This document shows, piece by piece, positions 25,391-44,594 of a DNA stretch of 64,000 nucleotides. Below the pieces are notes generated by a model. It did not search any database. It was given only the letters and a program-made list of their open reading frames with translations, and was not told the DNA's origin. How positions within the stretch are numbered: the first letter of the stretch is position 1; each line of letters opens with the position of its first letter. Source of the DNA: Strigamia acuminata. Its lineage: Eukaryota. The DNA is taken from the NCBI GenBank assembly GCA_949358305.1, contig OX442314.1, positions 16,368,001 to 16,432,000 of the forward strand, written 5' to 3'. The translations under genes and the position numbers were made by a program.

Positions 25391-25809
25391 TATAGTACAC
25401 CGATTTTAGCTCTTGAATGAATCAAGTTTCTGATGACAGTGTCGAATGATTAAAATAATGCGTTATTTTGTAACTTTGTAATCGATAAGCTAGTACATTA
25501 TTTGAAAAGTGGTATCCGCCTTCCCCATTCAGCATTCGACGGCTTTCATTCGCAATGCTTTTCTCGTGCAATTTGTTACGCCCATTGCCATTGCTTTAAA
25601 AAATAACAAATACAATTTTAAAATTTAATCAACAACACAAAGAATTGCAATAAAAATATTCAAAGTACTGGATTTAAAAACTAATTAAAAATTCATCATT
25701 TTTTTAAAAAAAAAACTTTGCTTAGAATATTCTTTTGAAAAAGTTTTCTAATCAATTTGAATTTTATCTTTGTTTAACTACAAATTCAAAAGCATTAAAT
25801 CCAAAATCA

Positions 25810-25870
25810 AAACAGTCTATTCGCATTTTTAAAAACAATTGCAATGCTTCAAAAAGTTGTGATCCAGCTT
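25810..25870 (-). pseudogene. Left part of a DEG/ENaC pseudogene fragment interrupted by the Polinton
   Basis: aaacagtctattcgcatttttaaaaacaattgcaatgcttcaaaaagttgtgatcca aligns by eye to 20401-20457 (the KHCNCFKKC exon). Confidence 0.8.
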
Positions 25871-26255
25871 AGTAGTGGGTTTGTGGGGATCCTGGGCCAG
25901 TGGTTGGTGGTGAGGGGGGGTGGGGGTGGTGAGGGTTAAGTGGGGGGAGAGATAAGGGGAGGGGGAGATAAGTGGAGGGGGAGATAACGGGAGGGGGAGA
26001 TAAGGAGAGGGGGAGATAAGGGGAGAGCTAAGTGGGGGTGACTAATTGCTTCAATCAATCAGTCTTATCATTCAATCAATGTACCCTAGGCTATTATTTG
26101 TTATTGTTTTTCTTTACTTAAGTACCTTGTTGTTGTTTTTCCCAAATTTTCAAAGGACCCTTGTTTTTCTTTACTTAAGCACCTTGTTGTTGTTTTTCCC
26201 AAATTTTCAAAGGACCCTAGGCCACTTTTAATCAAAGGAGGGATATTATTGGGTA
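25871..26255 (+). repeat. Left terminal inverted repeat of the Polinton
   Basis: Reverse complement of 40923-41308. By eye it is identical over the outer ~286 bp, with a few mismatches internally. It contains a G-rich GGGGGAGATAA array and a 57-bp direct duplication (26104-26217). Confidence 0.97.
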
Positions 26256-26354
26256 GTTATCTTAACCAATGGGAAACTAGTAATGGGTATATATACTTGC
26301 AATTCCCTACTCTCTTCTCTTCACTTCTTGCAAGTGCTAGGTTTTGTTTGCATC

Positions 26355-29300
26355 ATGGAATTTAACCACATTCAGTCTGAATTTGAAGAGTTGTTTATGG
26401 AGATTGAAGAATCTCTCTTTCCTCCTATTAACACACCTAATTCACTGCTTGATGTTGATGATGAAGAAAATGGATCCAATGATTCTCCATGTTGGATTTA
26501 CAATCATTCTCTGATTTATCCACTCTCATCGTCTACCATCATCAACCAGTCTCAACACGTGCAATCTCCAACCTGTGTCCTCCAATCTCAACCTGCATCA
26601 TTTCAATCATGCAATCCATTGACATCATGTGAGTCTCCCGTTCCTCTCTTGATTAATCATCAAATCCATAATCAAGTGGTGCAACATAATATTTGTGAAT
26701 TTGAAGAGATGCTTACGGAAATTGAAGAATCTCTATTTCCTCAAGTTAACACGCCCAATCCTCTACTGGAAGAAGAAAATGGATACAATGATTCTCCATG
26801 GATTTATAATCATTCTCCAATTTATCCACTCTCACCACCTACCATCATCAACCAGTATCAACACGTGCCATCTCCATCCTGCACCAATGCGTTTCAACAT
26901 GTGCCAACTCCAACCTGCATCAATCAATCTGAATCTGCATCATCTCAATCGTGCAATCCATCGATATCATGCGAGTCTCCAGTTCCTGTGTACCACTACC
27001 AACCAAATTTACACCAAGCAAGAACAAGCCGCATCGTCAATCCCCCATCTCCTATGACTTTAGTGCAACAAATTGGAGGTGGAGAGAAAGTACATTCGTG
27101 TGAGTACTGCAAAAAAAATTTTTCTTGTTTTTCAACTTTAAAAAGGCATCTTATTCATTCACATACTCTTGCTAAAAGCACATTCGCATGCGCAATTTGT
27201 ACAAATATTTTTTCACGCAAAGATGCCTTGCTGCGACATGTTAAAAAAATTCACAATCGCAGCAAAGAGACATTTACTTGCAATGTTTGCAAAAAGTCTT
27301 TTTCTTCAAATAATAATTTACTTAAACACATGCAAGTTCACATTCATCCTTTACCCGCCGTTCCACATCCACAACCACTACCCTGCGATGATCCTTGTGT
27401 TGACGCATTAGAGGGAAACGTCAACACGTATAAAATTCCCGGTGATGATTGTGGTGATTTAAATCATTTTTTCATTCAACACCACACTCGAGTGAAACGG
27501 ATCTTAAACTTCCAATTGATTAAAAAGAAAGCGGTAAAATATTATATCGCCGTTAATATACATTTCACTCGAACATCACAGAGTGGTGATACGGAAACCG
27601 TTGCATGTTTTCGAAGCATTTGCTATATTGCGCTCGTTGAATCGGATCTCGAGGACCAATTATTGGAGGCGTACGAGAAAATTAAACGTTCTTGCGCCGA
27701 ATTTCAACGAGATGGTAGTGGTTGGGTATTTGAAGCGGTGGTAGAGATGCATGTGAATATTGGTAGATATCGCCCATTGGCTGGAAGATCTTACATCGCA
27801 CTCCCCAAATTTTTAGCAGACAAAAAAGCAATAATAAATGTACAAAATCAAGATTCTTTGTGTTTTCTCTGGAGTGTTTTAGCTGCTCTGCATCCTGCAC
27901 CTTCCCACCCTGAACGTGTTTCACATTATACCAAGTACCGAAACACTTTAGATTTAACCGGACTTTCATTCCCAATGACTCTTCAACAAATCCCCAAGTT
28001 TGAAACCATGAATTCTATTAGTGTTCATGTGTTTGGTTTCGAAAAAGAAGTGTTTCCCCTATACATTAGCAAATTGGAACATAAAACCCAAATAAATTTG
28101 TTACTTTTTGCTAATGATCAAACCCAACATTATTGTTGGATTAAAAATTTAAATAAACTGTTACATTCCTTAACACATCACAATGAATTAGCTCACTATT
28201 GTAAATATTGTCTGCATAGATGTTCGTCAGAACGGATACTAAAAGATCACTTGGAGTACTGCTCAACCCATGGACTACAAAAAGTTAAATACCCCACCGA
28301 TGAAACAAAATGGATGCACTTTACTGATTTCCATAAACAATTTAAAGTCCCATTTGTAATATATGCGGATTTCGAGTCACTGCTCGTTAAAAATGTTGAA
28401 AAAGATGAGACAAGCAAAGTGCAAAAAGTGTCCAAGCACGTACCATCGGGTTATGCTTATGCCGTTATCAATACGGAAGGTAAACTGCACCAACCTCCAT
28501 CGGTATATCGAGGTGAAAATGCAGTTGATCATTTTCTTGATCATATTACTAAATTGGAAGTAGAGTTGGGAAAGCTTATGGCTTTAAATCTTCCAATGGA
28601 TTTATCAAATGAAGAAAAATTGTTTATGGAAAGTGCTACATCTTGTCACATTTGTAATAAGACATTTTTAAAAAATGAAAAGAAAGTAAGGGACCATGAT
28701 CATGCTACTGGCAAGTTCCGTGGCCCTGCTCATAATTTTTGTAATCTGATGTATCGCAGAACATCTAAACAAATTCCCGTTGTGTTTCATAACTTAAAAA
28801 ATTATGATTCACATTTGTTAATGCAGGGAATTGGAAAGTATAAAGATCGTGAAATAAGCTGTATTCCAACCAACATGCAACGATATATTACTTTTTCACT
28901 CGGAAATCTTCGATTTCTCGATAGTCTGCAATTTATGAATGCATCTTTAGAATCATTGGTTGCTAATTTATTCAAAAGTGATCCAAACCAATTCCGAATA
29001 ATGAATCAACATTTCAAACCTGATCAAATCGGTTTGTTATTACGGAAAGGTATTTTTCCATATGAGTACATGGACTCTTGGATCAAATTCAACGAAGTCC
29101 AACTTCCTCCCATATCTGCATTTTACAGTACTCTAAGTGCGCAAAGTGTATCCGAATCTGACTATATTCATGCAAAGAAAGTGTGGGATAAATTCAATAT
29201 CCTAAATCTCGGTGTTTATCAAGACCTTTATGTTTTGACTGACGTTTTGCTGCTAGCTGACGTCTTTGAAAATTTTCGATCAATTTGTTTAGAGACTTAT

Positions 29301-30779
29301 AAATTGGATTGTTGCAATTATTTCACAACACCCGGTCTCTCATGGGGGGCATGTCTGAAACTAACAGATGTTAAATTAGAACTGTTAACGGATCCGCTTA
29401 TGCATGTCTTTATTGAAAATGGTATTCGCGGTGGTATATCAATGATTAGCCATCGATTTGCTAAAGCCAATCACAAAGATATAGATGGTTATAAAAAGGA
29501 CCTTCCATCCAATCACATCATCTATCTCGATGCGAATAACTTGTACGGCTGGGCAATGAACCAATATTTACCAACTCATAATTTCAAATGGATACCGCCC
29601 ACCGATGATTTTGATGTGTTAAGCATTAGTGAAACCGGCACAAAGGGATATATTTTGGAGGTAGATTTAGAATATCCCAAAGAACTCCATGATTCCCATA
29701 ACGATTATCCTCTTGCTCCTGAACGACTAACAGTAACTGAAAACATGTTATCACCCTACAGTCTCGAACACCTTATCCTACTAGAACAAAAACATCACCC
29801 ATCTCCCAAATTAGTTCCTAACCTTGCTAACAAAACAAAATACATTATCCACTACCAAAACCTCCAATTGTATTTGAAATTGGGAATGAAAGTCACGAAA
29901 ATTCATAAAATTCTGGAATTTGAACAATCTGATTGGCTTGCAAAGTACATTGGCTTAAATACTGAGTTGCGAAAACAAGCAACCAATAGTTTTCAAAAGG
30001 ACTTCTTCAAATTGATGAATAATAGTGTTTTTGGGAAGTCGCTCGAATCCGTCAGGAAACGTGTTGATGTGAGGTTGGTGCAAAATCCAGAGCGAGTGAC
30101 TAAATTATTAAATTCACCAACTTTTCACGAGTTCAAGATTTTCAATGAAGATCTTGTAGGTGTACATTTAAAGAAAAGAAATATCCTATTAAATAGACCC
30201 ATATACGTGGGCTTTTGCATTCTAGAACTTAGCAAAGTCCTTATGTATGATTTTCATTATAATCATATCAAAAAAACATATGGGAACAAAGCCAAGTTGC
30301 TTTTTACTGATACGGATAGTTTAACGTATAATATCGAAACAGATGATATTTATGCAGACATGAAAAAAGATTTAGAAAAATTCGACACTTCAGATTATCC
30401 TTCCACACACTCCCTATACAGCACAAAGAATAAAAAGGTAATTGGAAAGTTTAAAGACGAAATGTCCGGGAAATGCATACAGGAATTTCTCGGACTTCGA
30501 TGTAAAATGTATTCGTTTAAAACAAAAGATCAAGAAAAAAAGACAGCAAAAGGTGTACCTCGAAGTGTGCGAAATCAACTTCGCCACAAAGACTACAAAG
30601 AGTGTCTATTCAACAAAATAGAAAACGCACGTTCATCAAATCAAATTCGCTCTTTCGATCACGAATTATATACAATTTTGCAAAAGAAAATTGCTTTGTC
30701 TGCTGGAGATGATAAAAGGTACATTTTGAGTGATGGTGTAACGACTCTAGCTCATGGGCATTACAATATTATTTTGTAA
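26355..30779 (+). CDS. polB: Protein-primed family B DNA polymerase with an N-terminal duplicated acidic region, three C2H2 fingers and an endonuclease VII-like insert
   Basis: Exo motifs YADFES, FHNLKNYDSH, YVLTDV; Pol motifs YLDANNLYGWAM, KLMNNSVFGK, FTDTDSL; EndoVII-like CHIC..DHDHATGKFRGPAHNFCN. The ORF opens at 26283, but a TATATA at ~26288 favours ATG 26355. Confidence 0.97.
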   Translation: MEFNHIQSEFEELFMEIEESLFPPINTPNSLLDVDDEENGSNDSPCWIYNHSLIYPLSSSTIINQSQHVQSPTCVLQSQPASFQSCNPLTSCESPVPLLINHQIHNQVVQHNICEFEEMLTEIEESLFPQVNTPNPLLEEENGYNDSPWIYNHSPIYPLSPPTIINQYQHVPSPSCTNAFQHVPTPTCINQSESASSQSCNPSISCESPVPVYHYQPNLHQARTSRIVNPPSPMTLVQQIGGGEKVHSCEYCKKNFSCFSTLKRHLIHSHTLAKSTFACAICTNIFSRKDALLRHVKKIHNRSKETFTCNVCKKSFSSNNNLLKHMQVHIHPLPAVPHPQPLPCDDPCVDALEGNVNTYKIPGDDCGDLNHFFIQHHTRVKRILNFQLIKKKAVKYYIAVNIHFTRTSQSGDTETVACFRSICYIALVESDLEDQLLEAYEKIKRSCAEFQRDGSGWVFEAVVEMHVNIGRYRPLAGRSYIALPKFLADKKAIINVQNQDSLCFLWSVLAALHPAPSHPERVSHYTKYRNTLDLTGLSFPMTLQQIPKFETMNSISVHVFGFEKEVFPLYISKLEHKTQINLLLFANDQTQHYCWIKNLNKLLHSLTHHNELAHYCKYCLHRCSSERILKDHLEYCSTHGLQKVKYPTDETKWMHFTDFHKQFKVPFVIYADFESLLVKNVEKDETSKVQKVSKHVPSGYAYAVINTEGKLHQPPSVYRGENAVDHFLDHITKLEVELGKLMALNLPMDLSNEEKLFMESATSCHICNKTFLKNEKKVRDHDHATGKFRGPAHNFCNLMYRRTSKQIPVVFHNLKNYDSHLLMQGIGKYKDREISCIPTNMQRYITFSLGNLRFLDSLQFMNASLESLVANLFKSDPNQFRIMNQHFKPDQIGLLLRKGIFPYEYMDSWIKFNEVQLPPISAFYSTLSAQSVSESDYIHAKKVWDKFNILNLGVYQDLYVLTDVLLLADVFENFRSICLETYKLDCCNYFTTPGLSWGACLKLTDVKLELLTDPLMHVFIENGIRGGISMISHRFAKANHKDIDGYKKDLPSNHIIYLDANNLYGWAMNQYLPTHNFKWIPPTDDFDVLSISETGTKGYILEVDLEYPKELHDSHNDYPLAPERLTVTENMLSPYSLEHLILLEQKHHPSPKLVPNLANKTKYIIHYQNLQLYLKLGMKVTKIHKILEFEQSDWLAKYIGLNTELRKQATNSFQKDFFKLMNNSVFGKSLESVRKRVDVRLVQNPERVTKLLNSPTFHEFKIFNEDLVGVHLKKRNILLNRPIYVGFCILELSKVLMYDFHYNHIKKTYGNKAKLLFTDTDSLTYNIETDDIYADMKKDLEKFDTSDYPSTHSLYSTKNKKVIGKFKDEMSGKCIQEFLGLRCKMYSFKTKDQEKKTAKGVPRSVRNQLRHKDYKECLFNKIENARSSNQIRSFDHELYTILQKKIALSAGDDKRYILSDGVTTLAHGHYNIIL

Positions 30780-30962
30780 AAAGTGTTATTTATTTATTTA
30801 TTTATTTTGTAAACAAAACTGTTACATATTTTTATTATTATTATATCATTATCTTATCATGTAATTTATTTTGTAAATGAAATTATTATTATTATTATTA
30901 TTATTATTTTTATAAAATAAAACCATTATTATATATATTATCGTGTCATTCTTTCACAAACC

Positions 30963-31349
30963 ATGGACAGAGCAGGATTACAGAAAAACCTGATGCTCTT
31001 ATTTGAAAATCATAAATTATGGATTACGACTGGAAGTTTCTCTGTTGTTGGATGTTGTATCGTTATTCTACAAATCATGATTCTGATGTACTCTCCTCCA
31101 ACCTTAATCCAACCAACTGTGGATGTAGTGAAAATGTTGCCTGTATCCAATGGATGCAATTCCACTTTTGATCTAGGAAATGGAAAACAACTAAATATTT
31201 GCAAACGTGGAGATGATGTAATATTTGATATCAGACAGTTTAGCAGAGCTGGTCCATCCATCAAAGGAATTAATTTAAATTGGTATCAATGGATTAGATT
31301 AACTCGAGCAATCTCTTTTCTCCATTCGAATGTAACTATTGTTAAATAA
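30963..31349 (+). CDS. PC4-like ssDNA-binding domain protein with an N-terminal hydrophobic segment
   Basis: FDLGNGKQLNI..VIFDIRQF..PSIKGINLNWYQW resembles the PC4 (Sub1) signature; it is preceded by FSVVGCCIVILQIMILMY. Confidence 0.7.
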   Translation: MDRAGLQKNLMLLFENHKLWITTGSFSVVGCCIVILQIMILMYSPPTLIQPTVDVVKMLPVSNGCNSTFDLGNGKQLNICKRGDDVIFDIRQFSRAGPSIKGINLNWYQWIRLTRAISFLHSNVTIVK

Positions 31350-31401
31350 ACAAGTGCATATGCAATGATCGAAATATATCTTTATTATTTGTGTATACAA
31401 A

Positions 31402-32496
31402 TTATAATGGTGGGTTGTCTCGTAAGTCATCAGCGGGAATCCAGGAATTAAATTCATCTCCATAACCCATCCACTTTACAAAATATAATTTATTCGCACC
31501 TTTGCCTTTAGACTTTAATACTGTTTCTACAGCATACTCCGCATCCTTGGGTTTATTAATTTTCTGCAACTCAAATTCATAAAATGTACCGAGTAAAGGT
31601 TCATCATTGTAATCTTTAAGCATATAGACAACTTCTGGTGGTCGGATTAATCGATTGGCAATATAATAAATTTGATGCGAATAGCTTCCCCTGTATCCCT
31701 TTCGGAAAACCACTTTTGATTTTGATATTCTAACACCATCACCAATATTAAACTTAAATTTTTTATGTCTTTTATTTATTGTATCACCATATAAGTGGTA
31801 AAACACTGCCGGTTCTTTCTCTTTCGTAACATCAACAGGTTTCATTCCTAATGTTCGATGAACGCTATGATTATATGAATCAATAAATGTTTGCAGTTGG
31901 TCAATATATCGATGTCTGCCGGTATATGTGAAATAAGTCCACATTTTCTGCTTTATGGTCCGATTTAATCTTTCACAAAGTGAACATTTAATATCATCAT
32001 TTTCACTTGTAAAATGTTTGATGTTATTTTTTAGTAAGAATTCCTGAAAAGCTTTATTTAAGTATTCTTTTCCCTTATCGGTCTGTAGAAAAAGGGGTTT
32101 AGTCTTGGCACGTTTTAGAATTGTTTCAAAAGCTTTTATAATATGTTGCGCAGACTTTGTTGGTAAAGCTTCAATATACGCATATCGTGAAAATACATCA
32201 ATGACAGTCATTAAATATCTATTTCCATCATTTTCCTTTGCTATGTTTCCAACTTCAACCAAATCCGATTGCCATTGGTAATTAATAGATGGTACAATAG
32301 TCTTAGAGCGTTGAAACTTGTATCGAACTGGTTTATGTAAGGTATATGAGTCTAGTCCTTGTAACCAATCTTGAATCTCCTTTCTGGTAACTTGTACCCC
32401 CCGATTACGTGCAGCATGGAACAATTTATCTCGACTACTAAATCCGGCAGGATTTCTTGGATTAAAGTAGATATCTTTCAATTGTTGCTCTGCCAT
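31402..32496 (-). CDS. Retroviral-like (rve) DDE integrase with C-terminal chromodomain
   Basis: WQSDLV, VIDVFSRY, LQTDKGKEY, CERLNRTIK; chromodomain YAVETVL..YFVKWMGYGDEFNSWIPADDL. Confidence 0.97.
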   Translation of the reverse strand: MAEQQLKDIYFNPRNPAGFSSRDKLFHAARNRGVQVTRKEIQDWLQGLDSYTLHKPVRYKFQRSKTIVPSINYQWQSDLVEVGNIAKENDGNRYLMTVIDVFSRYAYIEALPTKSAQHIIKAFETILKRAKTKPLFLQTDKGKEYLNKAFQEFLLKNNIKHFTSENDDIKCSLCERLNRTIKQKMWTYFTYTGRHRYIDQLQTFIDSYNHSVHRTLGMKPVDVTKEKEPAVFYHLYGDTINKRHKKFKFNIGDGVRISKSKVVFRKGYRGSYSHQIYYIANRLIRPPEVVYMLKDYNDEPLLGTFYEFELQKINKPKDAEYAVETVLKSKGKGANKLYFVKWMGYGDEFNSWIPADDLRDNPPL

Positions 32497-32544
32497 ATGT
32501 TTTTCTAACTTTGTTCTATGCTCCTAGTTATACTGTTTATTTCT

Positions 32545-33429
32545 TTATTTTTTTTTCTTTTTTTGTGAACCGGAACTTGGTGTTTTATATTTGAATAAAC
32601 TCTCGTCTTGATCTCGTTGAAATCTTAAAGATTTGTTTGGTGTTCCGTAATGTGCCCAAGTGTTCTCTAAGTCTGACAGCTCTTGATCTTGATCTGATAG
32701 TGTTTGATTATTGATGATGGAGTCATTTCCACTCAATGACTCTCTATGAATGTCCCTAGTAATTGTGGGAGTTGAAGTGCTCATCGGTCTAATTAATTCC
32801 TTTCTTAAATTCTTGTTTATAATGTATTCTTTTGGTACATTTGAATCAATCAAAATTTTAATATACTCTGACTGACCAATCGGAATTACATTTTGCTTCG
32901 GGCGGTTTCTTATGGTATAGTTTATAAGATCAGCTTTGGTTGTATTTGGAATTTTTACTCCATCTATAATCATTTCCGATAGATTGCTCCATTTCAACCT
33001 TGGATTCAAATTCATAACTTCCATTAACGCAATAGCTTGTTTCTTTTGATCTTTTGACATTTTATTCAACATTATTTTATCCAATGGTTGAAGAACAAAT
33101 GGCGATTGAGATGTGGATAAGTGCGAAACAATTGGTGGTGGTGATTGAGGTGGAGATGCGGATTGAGTTGGAGGTGATATAGTAACAGTTTTTGGTGCAT
33201 TTAATTGTTTAATTAGCTTTTGTTTAAAGTTTCCAAATTGCGATTGAAGTGTCGATATAAGTTTAGCTTTCATTTCATCATTCAAGTTTGCATCATTGAA
33301 AATTTCCTCTATTGACGATTCAATCTTTTGCAATTTTTGATATTGCGGATCAATATCATCATAGTTCTTTTTCGAATATTGTAAAGATGACATCATTTCC
33401 TGCGGTACTAAAACCATTTTCCTAGCCAT
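32545..33429 (-). CDS. Polinton protein of unknown function (coiled-coil N-terminus, Pro/Ser linker, basic tail)
   Basis: 294-aa intronless ORF starting MARKMVLVP; LKWSNLSEMIIDGVKIPNT-type block; lies between the core-protein and integrase genes; overlaps the upstream stop codon. Confidence 0.75.
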   Translation of the reverse strand: MARKMVLVPQEMMSSLQYSKKNYDDIDPQYQKLQKIESSIEEIFNDANLNDEMKAKLISTLQSQFGNFKQKLIKQLNAPKTVTISPPTQSASPPQSPPPIVSHLSTSQSPFVLQPLDKIMLNKMSKDQKKQAIALMEVMNLNPRLKWSNLSEMIIDGVKIPNTTKADLINYTIRNRPKQNVIPIGQSEYIKILIDSNVPKEYIINKNLRKELIRPMSTSTPTITRDIHRESLSGNDSIINNQTLSDQDQELSDLENTWAHYGTPNKSLRFQRDQDESLFKYKTPSSGSQKKKKK

Positions 33430-33757
33430 TTTGTTTACTAATTAGTTTACCTACTAATGCTCCAATAATTGGGGCGAGTAGTTGCGGTAAAAATCCACCA
33501 GTTTGAATGACCAAGTTCCGTCTTTGTTTGAATGAAGATGTAGGAGTGGCCAATTTTCTTAACAACCTTCTCTTTCGATAAAGTGATTGTTTCTGATTTG
33601 CTCCTAACTTAATTGTACCTTTTATAATGTTTAAACAAATTTCACAGATGGTTTTACAGAAATCATCGTTAGAATGTTTGAGAAAATCCTTGATTTGTCT
33701 CTTATTTAAATCGGGAATGGCCCGGAGCACATTGGCGTGACGTCTTACTCGTTTCAT
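33422..33757 (-). CDS. Small basic Polinton virion/core protein with an amphipathic C-terminal peptide
   Basis: Arg/Lys-rich; ICEICLNIIKG; QTGG followed by FLPQLLAPIIGALVGKLIS. Confidence 0.8.
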   Translation of the reverse strand: MKRVRRHANVLRAIPDLNKRQIKDFLKHSNDDFCKTICEICLNIIKGTIKLGANQKQSLYRKRRLLRKLATPTSSFKQRRNLVIQTGGFLPQLLAPIIGALVGKLISKQNG

Positions 33758-33766
33758 TGGTGGAAT

Positions 33767-34366
33767 CTATATGTAAACTATAGTATATTCATCCGGAAAT
33801 ATATTAGTCTTCACTCTTTGATCTTGGGGTGTATCCGGTTTCAAATCAATTAATAAATACCCAAAACTTTGCGCTGTTGCATCGTTAAATGCTGATATGA
33901 AAAATTTACCTCGCTGTGGGAACATTTGACTCCCTACTTTTGCGATTTGATTCATATCCCTTGGATTTCGAAAAAGGATTAAATAGTGACTATTTAAAGA
34001 TAAAGTTCGTTGATATTTGCTTTGATGAAATATGTTTTGGCATAAATAAAATACACTAGTGCTCGTATGGTGCGAATATTTAGTCCACAATAACCCAATC
34101 TCTTGATTTAAATTTTCCATTTGATCGTCAATGATGAAAAGCTTTCTCGTTGATGAATCCAAAGTCTTTAAATTGGGTAATCCTTCGTGGAACTGCACAT
34201 TGGGAAATTCGATATACCACTGTTGCCATATTGAATAGTACCAGCAAATATCTTGTGGGGGTGGATCAATCATTTTACTCGCATTTCGGATAATTTTCTT
34301 ACATATCTCCGTTTTGCCCGTACCCGAACTTCCAGAAATAATAGCAGTAAATGGATGATGAAACAT
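33767..34366 (-). CDS. A32/FtsK-like genome packaging ATPase
   Basis: Walker A GSSGTGKT, Walker B LFIIDDQ, SHH, LSLNSHYLILFRNPRD, FGYLLIDL. Confidence 0.95.
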   Translation of the reverse strand: MFHHPFTAIISGSSGTGKTEICKKIIRNASKMIDPPPQDICWYYSIWQQWYIEFPNVQFHEGLPNLKTLDSSTRKLFIIDDQMENLNQEIGLLWTKYSHHTSTSVFYLCQNIFHQSKYQRTLSLNSHYLILFRNPRDMNQIAKVGSQMFPQRGKFFISAFNDATAQSFGYLLIDLKPDTPQDQRVKTNIFPDEYTIVYI

Positions 34367-34419
34367 TGTTCATATAAGAGGTGATGTCACCTCAATGATG
34401 CAATCAGAAGTGAGCAGGC

Positions 34420-35550
34420 ATGGATCCGGAACAGAGTTTCTATGTGAGTCTTCCATCAAATAGCAGCTTAGATTATTACCCGAATAATACATTGACGGAA
34501 TTTCATACGCAATTACCATCATATATTAATTTAGATGAAAATTGGGAAGTGGGTCTGGTTGGATTCCTTTATCCAAGAAGCTGGAGTACTGCTCTATTGC
34601 CCCGAGGTGCCGATTTTCGAATACTGAAGAATGAAGTCAATGCAATCAAATTTCCACCATTCAAATTTGTGGATGCATCCCTACCGCAGGATAAGCTAAT
34701 ATCCGAGTTTCTTAACTTTTTAAATAATAATTTAACATCTCCAACCAAGAAAGATGAGAAAGTTAAAGATCTTGACAAAGCATTGCAAAAATTAGGAATT
34801 AAATTTCACTGGAATTCCACTCGTTTAAGATTTGAAATAATAATTATGCCTAAGTTTCAAGTCATGATCCCGCAGAGGCTGGCATATGTGTTAGGTTTTG
34901 TGAAAGATGAAGATGATGATTTTTACGCTGATGAATCCAAGACGGCTCGTGATTCTCCACGTCTCACACCAAATCTTATCAATGATAAAAATTGGAATTT
35001 ATCAATTGAAAAGGAGACTGATGGTAAACAGAAACAAAGCTTGAAACCTGGAAATTATTCGGGACCTGATCAATTAGTAGATGCTTTAAATCTTAAAGCA
35101 CTCGTAGTTATTGATAAAGCACCATTTAGTTTTAATATATCATCAAAGAAAATTGAGATTAACTTGCCAATTAACACCAAGTTGGTTCTTGATAAAGCCT
35201 TGGCATCAACTCTCGGTTTTAATGATTTGCGTGTAATTACAAAAACAACAGAAGCTTTTCATAAAATGGATGAACAAGTTGGACTATATCATATGTACTT
35301 GTATTGCAATCTAATACAACCAAACATTGTTGGGGATACTTTAGCGCCACTGTTAAGAATAATACAGATTCAAGGAAAAGAGCGAGGACAATACATCTCC
35401 CAAACTTTTGAAAATCCACATTATAAACCGCTGGCAAAATTGCAATTTGAATCCATACAAGTGCTTATAAGGGGTGACACCGGAGAAAAAGTACCATTCG
35501 AGTTTGGACGTGTCGTTGCAACGTTACACTTCAGGAAGAGATTGGATTGA
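34420..35550 (+). CDS. Minor capsid (penton-like, PX) protein
   Basis: FYVSLPSNSS..YPNNTLTEF..WEVGL N-terminus and MYLYCNLIQPNIVGDTLAPLLR..PHYKPL..LHFRKR C-terminus, typical of Polinton minor capsid proteins. Confidence 0.88.
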   Translation: MDPEQSFYVSLPSNSSLDYYPNNTLTEFHTQLPSYINLDENWEVGLVGFLYPRSWSTALLPRGADFRILKNEVNAIKFPPFKFVDASLPQDKLISEFLNFLNNNLTSPTKKDEKVKDLDKALQKLGIKFHWNSTRLRFEIIIMPKFQVMIPQRLAYVLGFVKDEDDDFYADESKTARDSPRLTPNLINDKNWNLSIEKETDGKQKQSLKPGNYSGPDQLVDALNLKALVVIDKAPFSFNISSKKIEINLPINTKLVLDKALASTLGFNDLRVITKTTEAFHKMDEQVGLYHMYLYCNLIQPNIVGDTLAPLLRIIQIQGKERGQYISQTFENPHYKPLAKLQFESIQVLIRGDTGEKVPFEFGRVVATLHFRKRLD

Positions 35551-35554
35551 CAAG

Positions 35555-36037
35555 ATGAGATTTCACTATGAACTAAACCCTCAAATCTGCATGGATAGAT
35601 ATTGCTCAAATCATGCGCAAATAGGTGGAGCAGATCTTCCTATATTTGTAGGATCTCGCTATCAACAAGGACATGGTTTGGGTTCACTTATAAGTGACGC
35701 ATTTCGAATTGTAAAGCCTTTTGTGAGAAGTGGAGCGTTGGATGCAGCAACGTATGGTTTGAAGAGAGGATTAGACGTAATTTCCGATATGCGTGTAAAC
35801 AAGAGAAAATTTGGAAATGCATTTAAAGATCAGGTTGTTCGAACCAAATCGGATTTTTTAAAAAAGATTGGTGTACAGAAAGGAGGCAAACAAAAGCGGA
35901 TGGATGGTAAACAAAAGAAAAGACGTGTAACCAAACAAAAGAATCAGTCTAAGAGACGAACTCGACCAAAGAAGAACGTGCGTAGGAAGTCCTGCAAAAG
36001 GAAAACTTCACTTCTTGGACCTGACATATTTGATTAG
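35555..36037 (+). CDS. Basic core/virion protein (PZ-like) with putative protease sites
   Basis: QIGG, F.GSRYQQGHGLGSL, QKGG, very Lys/Arg-rich tail ending DIFD; lies between the penton and major capsid genes. Confidence 0.8.
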   Translation: MRFHYELNPQICMDRYCSNHAQIGGADLPIFVGSRYQQGHGLGSLISDAFRIVKPFVRSGALDAATYGLKRGLDVISDMRVNKRKFGNAFKDQVVRTKSDFLKKIGVQKGGKQKRMDGKQKKRRVTKQKNQSKRRTRPKKNVRRKSCKRKTSLLGPDIFD

Positions 36038-36039
36038 CC

Positions 36040-37377
36040 ATGCCGCAATTTCCCCATGAATCATCTGCCGAAGGCGCGACTCCAGAACTAGACATTTTTG
36101 GATTACCACTCACACAAATAACAGTGGAAGATAATTATTGGAGTGAATACCATCCAATTACAGCCGTAACTGCAGGACAGCCATTAGATTTTTCAATCAA
36201 GGGTACTGCTGATACGTACATTGACTTGAGTCAAACATACTTGTTACTAAATGTAACTGTAACCGATGGTGCTGGGGCTGTAATTACAAAAACAGCTAAG
36301 GTTTCTCCTACAAATTTATTCCTACATTCATTGTTCAGTCAAATAGATGTTAGACTAAATGATAAGCTAGTGTCAGCTTCCGATTCAAATTATTGTTATA
36401 GAAGTTATCTCGAAACAATTCTCAGTTTTTCAAATGATGCCAAAAAGAGTTATAAAACAGTGGAGATGTATTATGAGGATACAGGAGGATCATTTGATGA
36501 TTTAGATCCAACAGTAGCAGATTTTAACGAGGAGTTTGGAATTTATAAACGATATCATCGACTCATGCAGGATGGTGATTGTGGAAAATTACAGATGTTT
36601 GGAAGACTTCACTGCGATATCTTTTCTCAACCACATTATCTCATAAATAATGTTGACTTGCGAATTACACTTACTAGACAAAATGATGCATTTAGTTTAA
36701 TTTCAAAAGAGGCAGGGGCGGCCTATAAAACAGTTATAAATGATGCAACTTTATTTGTAAAAAAGATAGTTCCTAGCGCTAGTGTACTCTTAGCTCATCA
36801 TCAAGCATTAGAGCAACGTAATGCGAAATATCCCATTAGAAGGGTAGAAGTTAAGACATTTACAATTGCTACAGGATCGCAAACTGCTATGATTGATAAT
36901 GCATTTCTCGGTCAATATCCATCCCGATTGATTATTGGTCTTGTGAAAAACACTGCCTACTGCGGATCATATGCCAGTAATCCGTATAATTTTGAAAACC
37001 AAGGAATAAATTTTCTTCAAGTATTTTTGGATGGAAAAGGAGTACCAATGAGTCCATATAAGCCAGATTTTGCAAAAGGACAAGCAGCTCGTGAATTTAT
37101 TACCTTATACCAAACTATGAATAGAGCAGATAAAGATTTAGGATTAGGCATTTCGTATACTGATTATTGTTTAGGCGGAAATGTTTTATTTGGATTTGAT
37201 TTAACGCAAGATGCATCCGCCGGTCAACCACATTTGAATTTAGTAAAACAAGGAAATGTTAGGATTGAAATGAGATTTAATAAAGCCTTAACTGCAACCA
37301 TAACCGTATTAGTACTGGCGGAATATCAATCCATACTGGAGATTGATAGAGCGAGGAATATCATTACTGAATTTTAA
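36040..37377 (+). CDS. Major capsid protein (double jelly-roll, PY)
   Basis: 445 aa; ELDIF..P.TQ, YIDLSQTYL, NLFLHSLFSQIDV, GRLHCDIFSQ, G...NPYNF, LFGFDLT, GNVRIEMRF. Confidence 0.93.
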   Translation: MPQFPHESSAEGATPELDIFGLPLTQITVEDNYWSEYHPITAVTAGQPLDFSIKGTADTYIDLSQTYLLLNVTVTDGAGAVITKTAKVSPTNLFLHSLFSQIDVRLNDKLVSASDSNYCYRSYLETILSFSNDAKKSYKTVEMYYEDTGGSFDDLDPTVADFNEEFGIYKRYHRLMQDGDCGKLQMFGRLHCDIFSQPHYLINNVDLRITLTRQNDAFSLISKEAGAAYKTVINDATLFVKKIVPSASVLLAHHQALEQRNAKYPIRRVEVKTFTIATGSQTAMIDNAFLGQYPSRLIIGLVKNTAYCGSYASNPYNFENQGINFLQVFLDGKGVPMSPYKPDFAKGQAAREFITLYQTMNRADKDLGLGISYTDYCLGGNVLFGFDLTQDASAGQPHLNLVKQGNVRIEMRFNKALTATITVLVLAEYQSILEIDRARNIITEF

Positions 37378-37385
37378 CTCAAGCT

Positions 37386-37910
37386 ATGAACACGCTCCAA
37401 ATAACGGAGATTTTATCTAAGAATTCAGTGACGAGGCAAATTTTTAAAGGTGTATATCCAATTGATTTGCTATCCTCATCGCAACAAACAAACAAAACAT
37501 GCGCGTTTGTTGTAAATACTCATCCCCATACAAAACCAGGCGAACATTGGGTAGCATTGTTTCGAGATGAGAAAGTACCCGGTGCGATTGAATATTTTGA
37601 TTCGTTCGGTAAACCACCAGCGAAAGAAATTACTGCTTTTATTCAAAATATTGGATGTAAACTAACCAACAGGATTACTCAAACCTATCAATCACCGTGT
37701 AGTCTCGCATGTGGATATTATTGCATTTATTTTATTTATAATAGGTGTAAAGGAAAAAGCTTTGATTATATAAAAAATCAATTTAATCCAAGAAATCCAT
37801 ATTACAATGATAAAAAAGTTACAAAATTTGTTAAACATATTTTTAATTTTAAGATGTCAACATTGTATGATAAAAATTGTATCGTACAAATAAGTAAAAC
37901 AAAGAAATAA
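37386..37910 (+). CDS. Adenain/Ulp1-like cysteine maturation protease
   Basis: Catalytic H-D-C set with the oxyanion Gln: GEHWVA, EYFDSFG, YQSPCSLACGYYC. Confidence 0.95.
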   Translation: MNTLQITEILSKNSVTRQIFKGVYPIDLLSSSQQTNKTCAFVVNTHPHTKPGEHWVALFRDEKVPGAIEYFDSFGKPPAKEITAFIQNIGCKLTNRITQTYQSPCSLACGYYCIYFIYNRCKGKSFDYIKNQFNPRNPYYNDKKVTKFVKHIFNFKMSTLYDKNCIVQISKTKK

Positions 37911-37939
37911 AGTAATTGTTACAAAATCTGGTGTTTCTA

Positions 37940-38266
37940 TCAACCTGGTGTATCTAACCCATAGATGGATTTATAAATCAACCACTCTTCATTCAGTCCT
38001 TTTTCAAAAGTAATTCTCATTAATGGACAATAGGCATACCAAGAATAATGTTCCAAAAGAGGTATGTCACCACGTTTCCACTCTTTTAATCGACCGAGAC
38101 AGTAGACGCACTCAACATGATCATTTTCACCCAAGTATTTGAATCCAGCACGGGCTAAGGTGGAAGGGTCGGCGATGTGTCTAGAAACAGGCCAGTTGCG
38201 AAAGGTTTGCTTCCGTTCCCGGATTCGCCGCATCATCTCCGTTCGCATTTTCATTTCCCGTTCCAT
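37940..38266 (-). CDS. Single BIR-domain (IAP-like) protein carried by the Polinton
   Basis: RKQTFRNWP..LARAGFKYLGENDHVECVYCLGRLKEWKRGDIPLLEHYSWYAYCP contains the C-x2-C..W..H-x6-C zinc-binding BIR pattern. Confidence 0.92.
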   Translation of the reverse strand: MEREMKMRTEMMRRIRERKQTFRNWPVSRHIADPSTLARAGFKYLGENDHVECVYCLGRLKEWKRGDIPLLEHYSWYAYCPLMRITFEKGLNEEWLIYKSIYGLDTPG

Positions 38267-38870
38267 GAAGGAGGGCTTCAAGATCGTCGAGATAAGAATG
38301 GTCTTGAGTTTCAATACACCACTCCTTAAAGCAAAGACACTCAGCTTGAGGACAGTGCATTAACTTGGAGGGAAGTAGGGATTCATGAAGGTGACATAAA
38401 GGTTTTGAATCAGGATCAAGATTAAAATGAAGGTCCTGATATTTTGGACATCCCAATGATTCCAGGTCGAGGTATGGAATGTCACATTTGATTAACCAAT
38501 TTTTTTCAATTTGGCCTCCTTTGAATGCAATAATTGGTCTGTTGGCTTCCTGAACACAATTTATATGTAAAGATGTGAGGATAAAAGGAATCCAGCTTTG
38601 AGGTAGATCATCAGGACCATCTTCAAACTTCATACCGTGGATATTACGTTTTAACCAAGCAGCAACTTTTTGCCATTTTGGTTCTAGTTTGTCAAATTGT
38701 CCAACACGAAAGTGATAACTTAAAGTAGAATCCTTGTATAGAAAACACACTCCGAGCTCCTTGAGTAGAAAGTCGGGACCAAACTGGAATCCCTCAAAGT
38801 CAATAATACAACCTACGTTTTTTAATTGTTCCGAATTCATTCTAAAACACGAATTAAAATAAATATTCAT
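38181..38870 (-). CDS. DEDD/DnaQ-like 3'-5' exonuclease-fold protein
   Basis: IIDFEGFQ..LLKELGV, LKRNIHGMKF, AFKGGQIEKNWL, DLESLGCP, CHLH..HCPQAEC. Alternative start at 38840. Confidence 0.7.
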   Translation of the reverse strand: MNIYFNSCFRMNSEQLKNVGCIIDFEGFQFGPDFLLKELGVCFLYKDSTLSYHFRVGQFDKLEPKWQKVAAWLKRNIHGMKFEDGPDDLPQSWIPFILTSLHINCVQEANRPIIAFKGGQIEKNWLIKCDIPYLDLESLGCPKYQDLHFNLDPDSKPLCHLHESLLPSKLMHCPQAECLCFKEWCIETQDHSYLDDLEALLHGTGNENANGDDAANPGTEANLSQLACF

Positions 38871-39559
38871 TTATAATAATATCATTAAATAAATGGAACT
38901 TACTTTGAATGATGTTTCTAAAAGTTAAGTTGATTCGCGGATGAAGTGCAGAAATTTGCTTTGGAAGACTGTGATACCAAAAACGGTTTGTAGGTTGGTG
39001 CATTAGCAGAATGCTACCGTGTTCCAACGCGAGAGAAATCGGCTTTGGTGGTAAGACTGAGTTGCGAATAGTATACTTTCGCTTAAGAGACACGTGACGA
39101 AGAACAAAGTTTCTGTTTTGTCCTAGAGACAGGCTCGCTATTGGTGCGTTTGGATGAAGTCCCACCTCATCGTCTCGATGTTCACCAATAGTCTGGTTGC
39201 CATTTGCATAACGATTAACGAGAACAAAGTTAAATTCATGTCCGGTAACAAACTGAACGGCATCTCGTAAATCACGCAAAAGAGGAGTCCAAGTTTTAAC
39301 CGGTAAAGTATTACCAGAAAATGAATATTTCAATCCATCATCACCAAATGCAACTTGTTGTCTCGGTATATTGATCCACTTGCCATAAATCTTGATTTGA
39401 CTCACAAGTCAGTCTACCTGTATAGTATGTGATTTCATTTTCCAGCTTTTGAAATGTAGAATCAGCTACTTCTTTGTTGAAAAGAAGCCCATACTGCAAG
39501 TGTAAATCCTGCTTGGGAATATCTTTCCAACAAACAGGCTCTATTGTCGTCTTCTCCAT
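38854..39559 (-). pseudogene. ALKBH2-like AlkB dioxygenase with a frameshift near 39401-39412
   Basis: 5' ORF gives LFNKEVADSTFQKLENEITYYTG. The 3' ORF, in another frame, gives QIKIYGKWINIPRQQVAFGD..FNFVLVNRY..GEHRDDE..WYHSLP..RINLTFR. Confidence 0.88.
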
Positions 39560-39626
39560 GTTTTTTCATCCAAAAGAAACATCAGCTCGGTATATATAGC
39601 AGTTAACCTATTCTGCTGTCCAATCG

Positions 39627-39940
39627 GAGACATGTCTAAACTTGCCCCCCCAAGCGGTTTCAACAAATTATAGCAGAGGACTCCTCCCCTTTGCACCGCT
39701 CACTTCCTGTTTTATCCCCCCTTCCAAACAGTGCCATTGCTGAGACATGTTGAAACTTGTCTAAAATGGTTTCAACGAATCATAGCAGAGGAGACATTTG
39801 CACCACTCACTTTCTGTTTTATCCTCCCTTCCAAACAGTGCAATTGATGAGACATGAAACTTGTCTAAAATGGTTTCAACGAATCATAGCAGAGGACAAC
39901 GTTGCACCGCTCGCTTCCTGTTTTATCCTCCATTTCCACT
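39627..39940. repeat. Three imperfect tandem copies of a ~107-115-bp unit upstream of the AlkB gene
   Basis: GAGACATG recurs at 39627, 39742 and 39849, each followed by ggtttcaac..atagcagagga..ttgcacc.ctc.ctt.ctgttttatcc. Confidence 0.9.
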
Positions 39941-40140
39941 AATATAACACAAACACCCTTATTACAACTTAACTTATTTGTTAAAGAAATTAATGAAAGA
40001 AAAAAGATGTATTCTTATTCAAACAAATTTTATTTATATAATTAACACAAAAAAAAAAAGAAATAAGTACAAAAAAAAAAATTTAAACTAAAGTATACAA
40101 TTTCTATTCTACCAATACAAATAACAAATTAACTATAAAT

Positions 40141-40797
40141 CTATTCATCATCATCAGTATCGACAGGTACACTGGTAGGTTTTGAATCGACATCCTCATC
40201 AGAAGAATCCACAAAATGCACACCAGGAATGGGTCTCTGATATGGTTTCTTCTTCATTTGCTTTCTCTCCTTTTTCTTTTTTAAAACAATTGGAGCTTGA
40301 GATGTGGTCGGAGTAACAAATGAACTTGCAGTTGTTTCCTCGGGAATAGCTGGAAATTGAAGGTTGCTCTCTTGCAACTTTGACAGAGCTTCATCGATGC
40401 CCGAAAATATGGATGATCGCTGCTTCTTGAGTTGACGCCATTGTTCATACGAAAGCAGAATAAACTTCTCTGGCGCAAATGAATGACATATCATCAAAGA
40501 TACATCATCAGTTTTCGACTTGGAAATAGTGACTAAAACACCACCTACACACTCAATGGTTGATGATTTCTTGGTTTTTAAATTCGCAATTTCACTCGTT
40601 ATCTGCTTCCAATGTTCCACAAAATCATAAAATGTCTTAACGTTCATGCACATACCATCACGAGAGGGATACAGCTTTCCGTTCGGGTATGTCAGAAATC
40701 GTCTTAGGTGGATGTAGACTCCAGCTAGAAATGGATTGACTTGACAATAGATCTCCCCACCAAGAGAGTAGATCCCGCTGCTTGAAGTAGTAGTCAT
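40141..40797 (-). CDS. PC4-like ssDNA-binding protein (probably two PC4-like units) with basic NLS and acidic tail
   Basis: YSLGGEIYCQV..GVYIHLRRF..LYPSRDGMCM; second unit ending FILLSYEQWRQLK; KKKKERKQMKKKP; DTDDDE tail. TATAAA at 40845-40850 favours ATG 40797. Confidence 0.7.
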   Translation of the reverse strand: MTTTSSSGIYSLGGEIYCQVNPFLAGVYIHLRRFLTYPNGKLYPSRDGMCMNVKTFYDFVEHWKQITSEIANLKTKKSSTIECVGGVLVTISKSKTDDVSLMICHSFAPEKFILLSYEQWRQLKKQRSSIFSGIDEALSKLQESNLQFPAIPEETTASSFVTPTTSQAPIVLKKKKERKQMKKKPYQRPIPGVHFVDSSDEDVDSKPTSVPVDTDDDE

Positions 40798-40922
40798 GGC
40801 TTGTTTGTGAAAGAAATGGTGAGTATCCCAAAATGCGAGTTGCATTTATACAGGATAACTCCTCCCCTTTGAACCGCTCACTTCCTGTTTTACCCTTCCT
40901 TTCCATCACTGACATTGATGAG

Positions 40923-41308
40923 TACCCAATAATATCTCTCCTTTGGTTAAAAGTAGCCTAAGGGTCCTTTGAAAATTTGGGAAAAACAACAACAAGGTGC
41001 TTAAGGAAAGAAAAACAAGGGGCCTTTGAAAATTTGGGAAAAACAACAACAAGGTACTTAAGTAAAGAAAAACAATAACAAATAATAGCCTAGGGTACAT
41101 TGATTGAATGATAAGACTGATTGATTGAAGCAATTAGTCACCCCCACTTAGCTCTCCCCTTATCTCCCCCTCTCCTTATCTCCCCCTCCCGTTATCTCCC
41201 CCTCCACTTATCTCCCCCTCCCCTTATCTCTCCCCCCACTTAACCCTCACCACCCCCACCCCCCCTCACCACCAACCACTGGCCCAGGATCCCCACAAAC
41301 CCACTACT
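40923..41308 (-). repeat. Right terminal inverted repeat of the Polinton
   Basis: Reverse complement of 25871-26255; ends ...CCCACTACT followed by the CAGCTT TSD. Confidence 0.97.
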
Positions 41309-41732
41309 CAGCTTCGAGATGAAGGCTGAATACATTTCATAAACTCCTAAGAGACCATACGAATAGTTACATGTTGGTAGAGATACGTTGGTCATAAATG
41401 AGAATCTAATAAATAAATCATCAATCAAACACATCGTGGACATTTGGATTTGTACATGGGTTTTCTGGATCATTTATACGATAATCTTTAACAAATCATC
41501 AAAATTATTGGAAATTAAATCAAGAAAAATCACTGAGTGCTTATACTTTTGTGTGACCTCCAAACGGAATTGAGTAATGCAGCTATTGATTCGCATTAAC
41601 CGAAAAAAGCTAAATAAACAACAATAACAATTTATTTCTGTTACATTCACATTTTCTTGTGCCTGAAAATTGTCTCCACATCGATTCAAAAGTGATTGAA
41701 GTAAAATTATAGTAAAAATATTTGCTCCACTC
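41309..41732 (-). pseudogene. Right part of the DEG/ENaC pseudogene fragment interrupted by the Polinton
   Basis: Aligns by eye with 20455-20990 (e.g. gaatacatttcataaact, atctttaacaaatcatcaaaattattggaaa), with internal deletions. Confidence 0.8.
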
Positions 41733-43313: not shown

Positions 43314-44594
43314 ACACCTAAATCCTTACTATGTAATTGAAAATCGTTAAATTGGTTTATGCTAATGCTGAAACACTAGTCATGTACAAAGAAAATAAAA
43401 GTATGTTTACCGAACTGAAATTCTCTTTCAATGAAAACACGCAAATCCAGTGGACTATAAATTATTTACAGCACACATTATTCAAACTAAACCGCCTCTA
43501 AAAGCCTATAAAAGATGTTTATCTTAAAATTCAAACAGATGATTAACAATTTATAAACTGCCACATTACAGCAGACTATAAATAGACATTCATACTAAAA
43601 TAGCAGTTTCACATAGAATCATCTATTTATTTAGAAATCTTCTAGCTATAGATTAAAATGTACAAGTAAAATAAAATGTTGAAAGTAATTTAGATGTTTT
43701 TAGGCCGCTTGAAATTGAGTGCAATAAATTCCTACAAGGTCCGACGAATGTTTAGATACGAAGTCGCCACAAATTCATACAAATTCTCTTGTTTGATCGA
43801 CACTATGCCCTAGACATGGAAGTTTCACGTAAGAAATTTCCTAAGACTCAATTTCTGATTTGTTATGAAATCGAGTACTAGTAGTATTGGTTAAATCAAC
43901 CCAAAGTGCGATCTTTGCGTTACAACTTCGGATTGATGACATCATCATCGAAGATATAAATAACAACTTCAAACATTATCACCATATCCAATGCATATTC
44001 TACTTTCATCCGAGAAAAGATAACCATTTCCCAGTCTTCCATTGTCCACGTTTCATATGTTTTTGCCCAGGTTAATCTCGTTCTCTGCTGTCTTAATGTT
44101 ATAAAAAGTACAGACGAAATAAACTTCCCTTCAGTTAAGCTTTTTTAAGTTTATATACCAATGGCATCAATCTTGAGTTTCTTGACTCGGTCTTTCGTTA
44201 TCCTAACAACAGTATTAAAAGATAGACCGGGCAAATAATGATAGATAAACTTAAAACAGCTAAACAGAAGGGAAGTATATTTTGTCCTCGACTGTACAAT
44301 AAACAAAAAAACAAATCGAAAGTTGTACTTTTCCTGTATTTAATATTCAGAAATTAATTGTGACATTATTTATTGACCGGCTCATATTCTTTGAAGACTT
44401 CAAACATAATTACACCAAGCACGAAAGCTAACGATTAGAAATATTCTTTCAATCCATTACAATCTAAAAATCAAACTTAGTACATCGTGTAATAAATTAT
44501 TATCTAATAAAATATTCATTCACTCAAATAAAACAGTCGTGCCGTACATCAAGCGTCCATTTACCGCAACAGATTCGATCACAAACTATCAACC

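Follow-up and report, generated by a model that had tools for sequence, protein, structure and literature searches.

By what means Polintons withstand piRNA and siRNA silencing is an open question, and most of their accessory genes have so far been little more than names on a map. Within a 64,000-nucleotide stretch of the Strigamia acuminata genome (assembly GCA_949358305.1, contig OX442314.1, positions 16,368,001 to 16,432,000; hereafter the window, in whose numbering all coordinates are given), three such genes lie side by side in one Polinton and encode an AlkB protein, a nuclease and a BIR protein. A preliminary description took them for a single captured counter-defence and genome-protection module and for the best candidate for a new system. 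Do they form one system, or an assortment? The verdict reached here is that the block is a patchwork accessory set rather than a fixed three-gene system. On balance, these are probably independent accessory genes with jobs of their own rather than parts of one machine, carried on one likely spliced transcript of an intact Polinton.

The Polinton and its accessory block

Polintons are defined by terminal inverted repeats with AGT ends and a 6-bp target-site duplication. The complete Polinton/Maverick in the window spans 15,438 bp, ends in AGTAGT and is flanked by an identical 6-bp duplication. Its features relevant to the block are as follows.

25871..41308, no strand: whole Polinton/Maverick element, with AGTAGT ends and 6-bp target duplication
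25871..26218, no strand: left terminal inverted repeat, which over 353 nt matches the right arm at 99%
40961..41308, no strand: right terminal inverted repeat
40141..40845, minus strand: PC4-like gene of the single-strand-DNA-binding type (PF02229, E 7.6e-5, narrowly short of the curated threshold)
39640..39940, minus strand: three repeats of ~105 nt, copies of the unit 40846-40922 directly before the PC4-like gene
39591..39598, minus strand: TATA-like run, 37-39 nt before the AlkB ATG
38904..39559, minus strand: ALKBH2-type AlkB gene, frameshifted near 39400-39415; the downstream frame keeps HxD, the second His and RxxxxxR
38842..38903, minus strand: candidate GT-AG intron (predicted), 62 nt, 16% GC
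38181..38870, minus strand: MAEL-like/arenavirus-NP-like DEDDh nuclease with ECHC zinc site, assigned from a fold model and residue conservation
37940..38266, minus strand: single-BIR protein, 108 aa, no RING (PF00653)
37726..37731, minus strand: first AATAAA downstream of the AlkB, nuclease and BIR genes on their strand

Pfam recovers the rve integrase (E 7.7e-18) and an adenain-type protease (Peptidase_C5, E 4.2e-7), and the packaging ATPase gives weak matches only (Adeno_IVa2, E 0.0017; Pox_A32, E 0.0025). PolB and capsid domains had no match in the family libraries searched, nor did PF03175 in the PolB ORF with Pfam; the motifs visible in the 1498-aa ORF are ones that we take to be of PolB type, and the capsid genes are presumably such from their size, position and resemblance. 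The start of the PolB ORF (26283-27350) holds an internal duplication of ~310 nt and C2H2 zinc fingers, and its residues 777-824 form an endonuclease-VII-like zinc domain. Two PC4-like genes are present, one beside PolB (30963-31349) and the other near the right terminal repeat (40141-40845). The latter shares the orientation of the accessory block, has its own polyA signal at 40029 and probably starts at the Met at 40797. Rfam found nothing within the element.

The Polinton sits within a copy of another host repeat (25809-25866 and 41313-41633), and ~5 kb to the left (20400-20900) that repeat occurs again without interruption. A small inverted-repeat element at 44113-44286, likely a MITE family, has very high contig depth, the mean per bin running from thousands to tens of thousands. 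Copies of the Polinton itself were judged from the contigs of sequencing runs. Three runs of the same species cover its contigs ~6-9 times as deeply as the unique host DNA nearby (in run X1, 755-812 against 95-103); such depth is rough and is not a copy number, and its simplest reading is a small family of near-identical copies.

The three accessory genes run in one orientation in the order AlkB, nuclease, BIR and converge on the protease gene across a gap of 29 nt, an arrangement that the preliminary description had given correctly, as it had the TATA box and repeat array upstream. TATA-like runs are similarly spaced before the integrase and left PC4 genes. The unit 40846-40922 ends in TATAAA at the PC4-like gene, and the ~105-nt repeats are likely a duplicated promoter unit; since they copy the unit that precedes the PC4-like gene, AlkB seems to have been placed behind a duplicated promoter. 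A 9-nt motif is common to these repeats and to the gap (34380-34420) between the divergent ATPase and penton-like genes. Between 39620 and 37900 the gene strand holds no AATAAA, and the weaker ATTAAA occurs at 38821 and 38085.

The genes had also been called intronless, which is probably wrong because the candidate 62-nt intron would join AlkB to the nuclease gene. Its donor matches the consensus, 3001 nt hold no other T-rich YAG besides its acceptor, and four neighbouring host introns are 59-64 nt long. Splicing would end AlkB five residues past the LTFR motif, with a stop that overlaps the nuclease ATG at 38840 (ATGA). The unspliced tail would have 20 residues, and in ALKBH2 relatives the tail has a median of 7 and is no longer than 10 in 98 of 119. 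In two of the three related loci discussed below (L001 and L003), an acceptor-like site lies 44 nt before the first Asp codon of the nuclease, compared with 40 nt here, and no in-frame ATG precedes that codon; in L002, PC4 and the nuclease are linked by an ATGA overlap. A diverged contig from run X6 begins with the donor hexamer ~54 nt ahead of the candidate acceptor. The same run contains spliced host joints and little Polinton coverage, and its single nuclease piece (a diverged 258-nt contig at depth 4) has no splice joint. A TATAAA within the candidate intron, 35 nt before Met11 of the nuclease, could be a separate promoter for that gene, and it is possible that each of the three genes has its own TATA box.

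The overlaps between the genes, also part of the preliminary description, hold in a reduced sense. That of AlkB and the nuclease (17 nt) exists only if the first Met is used, and the probable nuclease start is Met11 at 38840. The overlap of 86 nt between nuclease and BIR involves only a poorly conserved tail, which extends 52 residues past E177 where 123 relatives have a median of 17. Neither coupling nor a splice route to BIR was found at the locus.

A predicted nuclease resembling Maelstrom and arenavirus nucleoproteins

The middle gene has no match in Pfam, PHROGs, NCBIfam, sequence or profile searches of the PDB, phages or a word-seeded search; a Pfam match to cobra toxin (E 0.094) was treated as noise. 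Its relatives form 391 clusters at E<=1e-3. A fold model built with an alignment of 123 of the best 150 matches, from which short, partial and very long ones were excluded, reaches a pLDDT of 89, compared with 38 from the single sequence. In a Foldseek search of the PDB, the best 24 of 40 matches (E<=0.001) are all nucleoprotein exonucleases, arenaviral wherever the title names the virus. VIA gives Z 12.0 both to Lassa NP (rmsd 3.4, 150 aligned) and to a bacterial DinG exonuclease domain; LCMV NP (11.8), DnaQ (11.3) and Maelstrom (10.9, rmsd 3.7, 159 aligned) come next. The 40 chains at Z>=8 are nearly all DEDD-type nucleases with a DnaQ-like RNase H fold. The DEDDh fold is therefore firm and its nearest branch less so. 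The DEDD nuclease of the preliminary description is thus upheld by predicted structure, without any family-library match.

Among the named proteins of a viral fold library, the best match (E 7.7e-9) comes from Drosophila-associated adintovirus 2. ORFs of ichnoviruses (wasp polydnaviruses) and a 1022-aa viral protein also match the fold (E 5e-15 to 1e-4), and one relative (P0025) carries two copies of the domain. In the Atlas, a Preplasmiviricota-rich cluster scores 0.95 and a Maelstrom cluster (PF13017) 0.90, at a recognition value of 2037 that lies below the reliable range; PF13017 is absent among the best 25 of 34 families for 124 members. No HMG box was found by Pfam or in the model, which is of a single domain.

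Two sets of residues are conserved among 124 aligned proteins drawn from separate 50%-identity clusters. The catalytic-type set D24, E26, E122, H172 and E177 is complete in 103 of them, and the ECHC zinc site (E38, C159, H162 and C173) in 120. The acidic residues were assigned by spacing and secondary structure, without superposition; on that footing E122 is likely the third acid and H172 the residue before the last, and Glu takes the place of Asp at acidic positions three and four. In Bombyx Maelstrom, the zinc ligands are E137, C290, H293 and C302 and the dead catalytic places are D122, N124 and R306, according to the available part of Chen 2015 (PMC4408791). By spacing, these correspond here to E38, C159, H162 and C173 and to D24, E26 and E177. 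Both residue sets are present in amoeba MAEL and Lassa NP, which the same passages describe as active exoribonucleases (PMC4408791). Within the part of another source at hand, the ECHC site is described only in Maelstrom and the arenavirus ExoN, both directed at RNA (PMC7968707). In comparison with diverged sibling contigs, 18 of the 20 nucleotide differences listed for the nuclease gene are silent where 27% would be expected (p 6e-9); the gene is under purifying selection.

From the model and these residues, the protein is likely an active RNase of the Maelstrom/arenavirus type. The arenavirus NP exonuclease (PDB 4o6i, 3r3l, 4gv9), a viral enzyme tied to immune suppression in the passages available (PMC4408791, PMC7968707), has the same DEDDh fold and ECHC site. 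The nuclease here differs from it in being a stand-alone protein of ~220 aa in an integrating DNA element, in its 15-18% identity and in the Glu at two Asp positions. The MAEL domain of Maelstrom (Bombyx 5af0, Drosophila 4ybg) likewise shares the fold (Z 8.9-10.9) and ECHC spacing. Unlike animal Maelstrom, the nuclease has no HMG box and keeps the acidic catalytic residues, as does the protist enzyme (Entamoeba EHI_192630).

The alternative that fares best is that the nuclease is catalytically dead and, like animal Maelstrom, acts as an RNA-binding decoy that jams the piRNA pathway through RNA or Piwi complexes. The Glu residues at two catalytic Asp positions are consistent with this, as is a fold near that of Maelstrom, which in animals binds RNA but does not cleave it according to the available account (PMC4408791). 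But where Bombyx Maelstrom lost its site to Asn124 and Arg306, the corresponding positions here are E26 and E177, and so many separate clusters retain all five residues that a dead decoy appears unlikely. The active RNase remains the preferred reading, and the roles in counter-defence and genome protection proposed in the preliminary description agree with the fold and conserved residues of the model.

Related loci and the composition of the block

One metagenome scan of 72 candidate stretches yielded three related loci of 1.1-3.9 kb each, with nucleases 40-44% identical to the one here; repeated scans found none in viral contigs, and a word search with BIR gave no candidate. PC4 lies upstream of the nuclease in all three. 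An ALKBH2-like gene is present in one (L003), where it is intact, encodes 192 aa and is 44% identical; the order there is AlkB-PC4-nuclease in a single orientation, which differs from the Polinton block here. BIR is present in none of the three, which is weak evidence because the loci are so short and L003 ends inside the nuclease gene. L001 and L003 are ~72% alike over their common stretches, with AlkB only in L003. A piece of a Polinton core gene, the integrase N-terminus, is found only in L002 (E 1e-5), and L001 and L003 are taken for elements by inference since no core gene is visible in them. Two GT-AG intron-like stretches lie upstream of the PC4 gene in L001 (590-960), and L003 has repeated motifs at its start (230-400), which we take to resemble YY1 and CRE sites. 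The co-occurrence that the preliminary description proposed to look for thus extends to AlkB and the nuclease in one of the three loci and to BIR in none of these short contigs; the full trio was seen nowhere else in the data examined.

The BIR gene is itself unexceptional in its domain, which the preliminary description had named correctly (PF00653, E 1.5e-19) and which has the canonical C2HC zinc ligands (C53-x2-C-x16-H-x6-C). Its best matches are NAIP, cIAP1/2 and ML-IAP, and the Atlas has many short proteins of 113-118 aa with a single BIR, in clusters of 83-411 members that are rich in invertebrates. A C-terminal RING E3 domain is typical of baculovirus and most cellular IAPs; Pfam finds none in these 108 residues. 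The zinc-binding BIR is thus like that of cellular and viral IAPs, whereas the protein here has one BIR and no RING, and its anti-apoptotic action is only putative. Two of the five differences listed against sibling contigs are silent, numbers too small for a verdict on selection.

Parts of the block have published counterparts in the same kind of element. IAP homologs are reported in adintoviruses (PMC8502044, section 3.2), and the part of that work at hand shows four MAEL and two IAP labels on its maps (Starrett 2021, Suppl. Fig. S2). A mael-associated polinton group is described in the available part of a preprint (Pannagram, bioRxiv 10.1101/2025.02.07.637071). A Maelstrom-like accessory gene is therefore common to adintoviruses and the Polinton here; published MAEL and the present nuclease family are presumably the same. 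The MAEL passages and labels available contain no analysis of catalytic residues, no AlkB and no splicing. The claim of a new system was accordingly overstated as regards MAEL and IAP, already on adintovirus maps, and holds better for AlkB.

These comparisons bear on the view that one selected counter-defence module moves as a unit. Tight packing on one strand behind a single repeat array, with no AATAAA between the genes, speaks for such a module, and so do diverged-subfamily contigs at similar depth on BIR, the nuclease and the AlkB/nuclease junction. Against this stand the gene order of L003, the presence of AlkB in only one related locus and of BIR in none, the visibility of AlkB in only one of two loci as alike as L001 and L003, and the separate labelling of MAEL and IAP on the maps available (PMC8502044). 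A module that travels whole is, on this evidence, rather improbable, and independent genes assembled on one transcript are preferred.

PC4 as the constant upstream neighbour also enters a different proposal, in which the nuclease is a DNA 3'-5' exonuclease for replication or the clearing of DNA ends, and AlkB, PC4 and the nuclease make up a genome-maintenance set unrelated to silencing. A DNA substrate is conceivable because Lassa NP ties with DinG and DnaQ follows closely, and DinG-exo, DnaQ, ExoX and TREX-like proteins all match at Z 10.8-12.0. Foldseek, however, ranks the NP exonucleases first, and the zinc site is one that the available source confines to RNA-directed proteins (PMC7968707); a DNA exonuclease is decidedly improbable, and an RNA substrate is favoured.

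The AlkB gene and the likely work of the block

The AlkB domain is clear (PF13532, E 2.3e-28), as had been described, and is of the ALKBH2 type (human ALKBH2, E 9e-51, compared with ALKBH3, E 2.5e-22), with 49-58% identity to the best 120 ALKBH2-type proteins listed. Like animal ALKBH2, it has its metal and 2-oxoglutarate motifs intact; it differs in having no introns seen within the domain and in being frameshifted. From the ATG at 39559, the first 48 codons match the ALKBH2 N-terminus, homology is lost near 39400-39415, and a stop follows after 72 codons; the remainder of the domain is read in a different frame, which has no ATG ahead of the catalytic core. The preliminary description had missed the frameshift, because of which AlkB cannot be made from this copy, whose product would have 72 residues. 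An intron concealed at the break was considered and discarded, as the stretch involved is much too short for one and the sibling contigs vary in length at that point.

Those contigs have depths of 781, 1721 and 306 in three runs, about that of the element itself, and the break is absent from most sibling contigs of the family. Decay in all copies, which would have told against a functional block, is not borne out, given these contigs and the purifying selection on the nuclease. Subfamily contigs ~85% alike span the AlkB/nuclease junction. A third type of AlkB-bearing contig (39039-39547, ~83% alike) is seen in runs X2 and X3 in contigs of 2.0 and 3.6 kb; it has a similar start context, other flanks and a depth 4-18 times that of unique host DNA, which differs between runs.

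The gene was likely captured from an animal. Trees of 56 and 28 rows picked from 122 settle neither the donor nor the number of captures: the two element-borne AlkBs are joined in 0 of 200 bootstrap trees, yet a single origin is not rejected (AU p 0.30). AlkB (PF13532) is known in giant viruses from the available part of one report (PMC10598087). In a Polinton it was not found in the literature searched, beyond whose reach lay subscription journals, Repbase reports and some supplements, and the portion of supplement text examined for PMC8502044 gave 0 matches.

AlkB might have been kept to undo 3-methylcytosine damage by host DNA methyltransferases aimed at the element. According to the part of the source available (PMC7343188), ALKB2 mends the 3-methylcytosine that DNMTs produce, and in arthropods it goes along with the level of methylation; the Polinton, moreover, is mildly CpG-poor (observed/expected 0.75). 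The host flanks show no CpG loss (1.04 and 1.07), which suggests little methylation in the host and makes this account very improbable.

Replication of the element itself offers the preferred reason for AlkB. The lesions 1-methyladenine and 3-methylcytosine are typical of single-stranded DNA, which strand-displacement replication exposes. Protein-primed strand displacement would expose Polinton single strands in need of repair, and in unbroken copies ALKBH2 may remove both lesions from them alongside the PC4-like binding protein. AlkB, nuclease and BIR would be read from a single transcript, its splicing and stop/start coupling being suggested by the candidate intron and the ATGA overlap. The nuclease is predicted to be the long-standing Polinton gene MAEL, a DEDDh ribonuclease of the protist-Maelstrom/arenavirus-NP type that works 3'-5' and is stabilised by zinc; most likely it would serve to destroy viral RNA, whether double-stranded or feeding small RNAs, and so to blunt host silencing. 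The RING-less BIR protein may bind N-terminal IAP-binding motifs as a decoy and damp cell death. In this copy, where AlkB is unmakeable, coupled translation of the nuclease may suffer too.

A more far-reaching interpretation is tentative and, taken whole, doubtful. In it, Polinton MAEL would be a large family whose members are active ribonucleases with both DEDDh and ECHC sites, and would correspond, among DNA viruses, to the exonuclease with which arenaviruses suppress immunity. It would be a first suppressor of silencing in Polintons and might connect animal Maelstrom with protist MAEL and arenavirus ExoN. Its transcript would be spliced and stop/start-coupled, and elements would time and again have inserted a host ALKBH2 there to repair their single-stranded replication intermediates.

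The trio itself matters less, as it appears to be a local assembly, and the parts of most interest are the MAEL family, with its full set of catalytic-type residues, and ALKBH2, which recurs. Two distant elements carry ALKBH2, a finding without precedent in the literature searched; this suggests that such elements go to the expense of repairing alkylation damage in exposed single-stranded DNA. The nuclease is a small candidate suppressor that keeps the catalytic residues lost by animal Maelstrom, and it bears on the origin of the arenavirus exonuclease.
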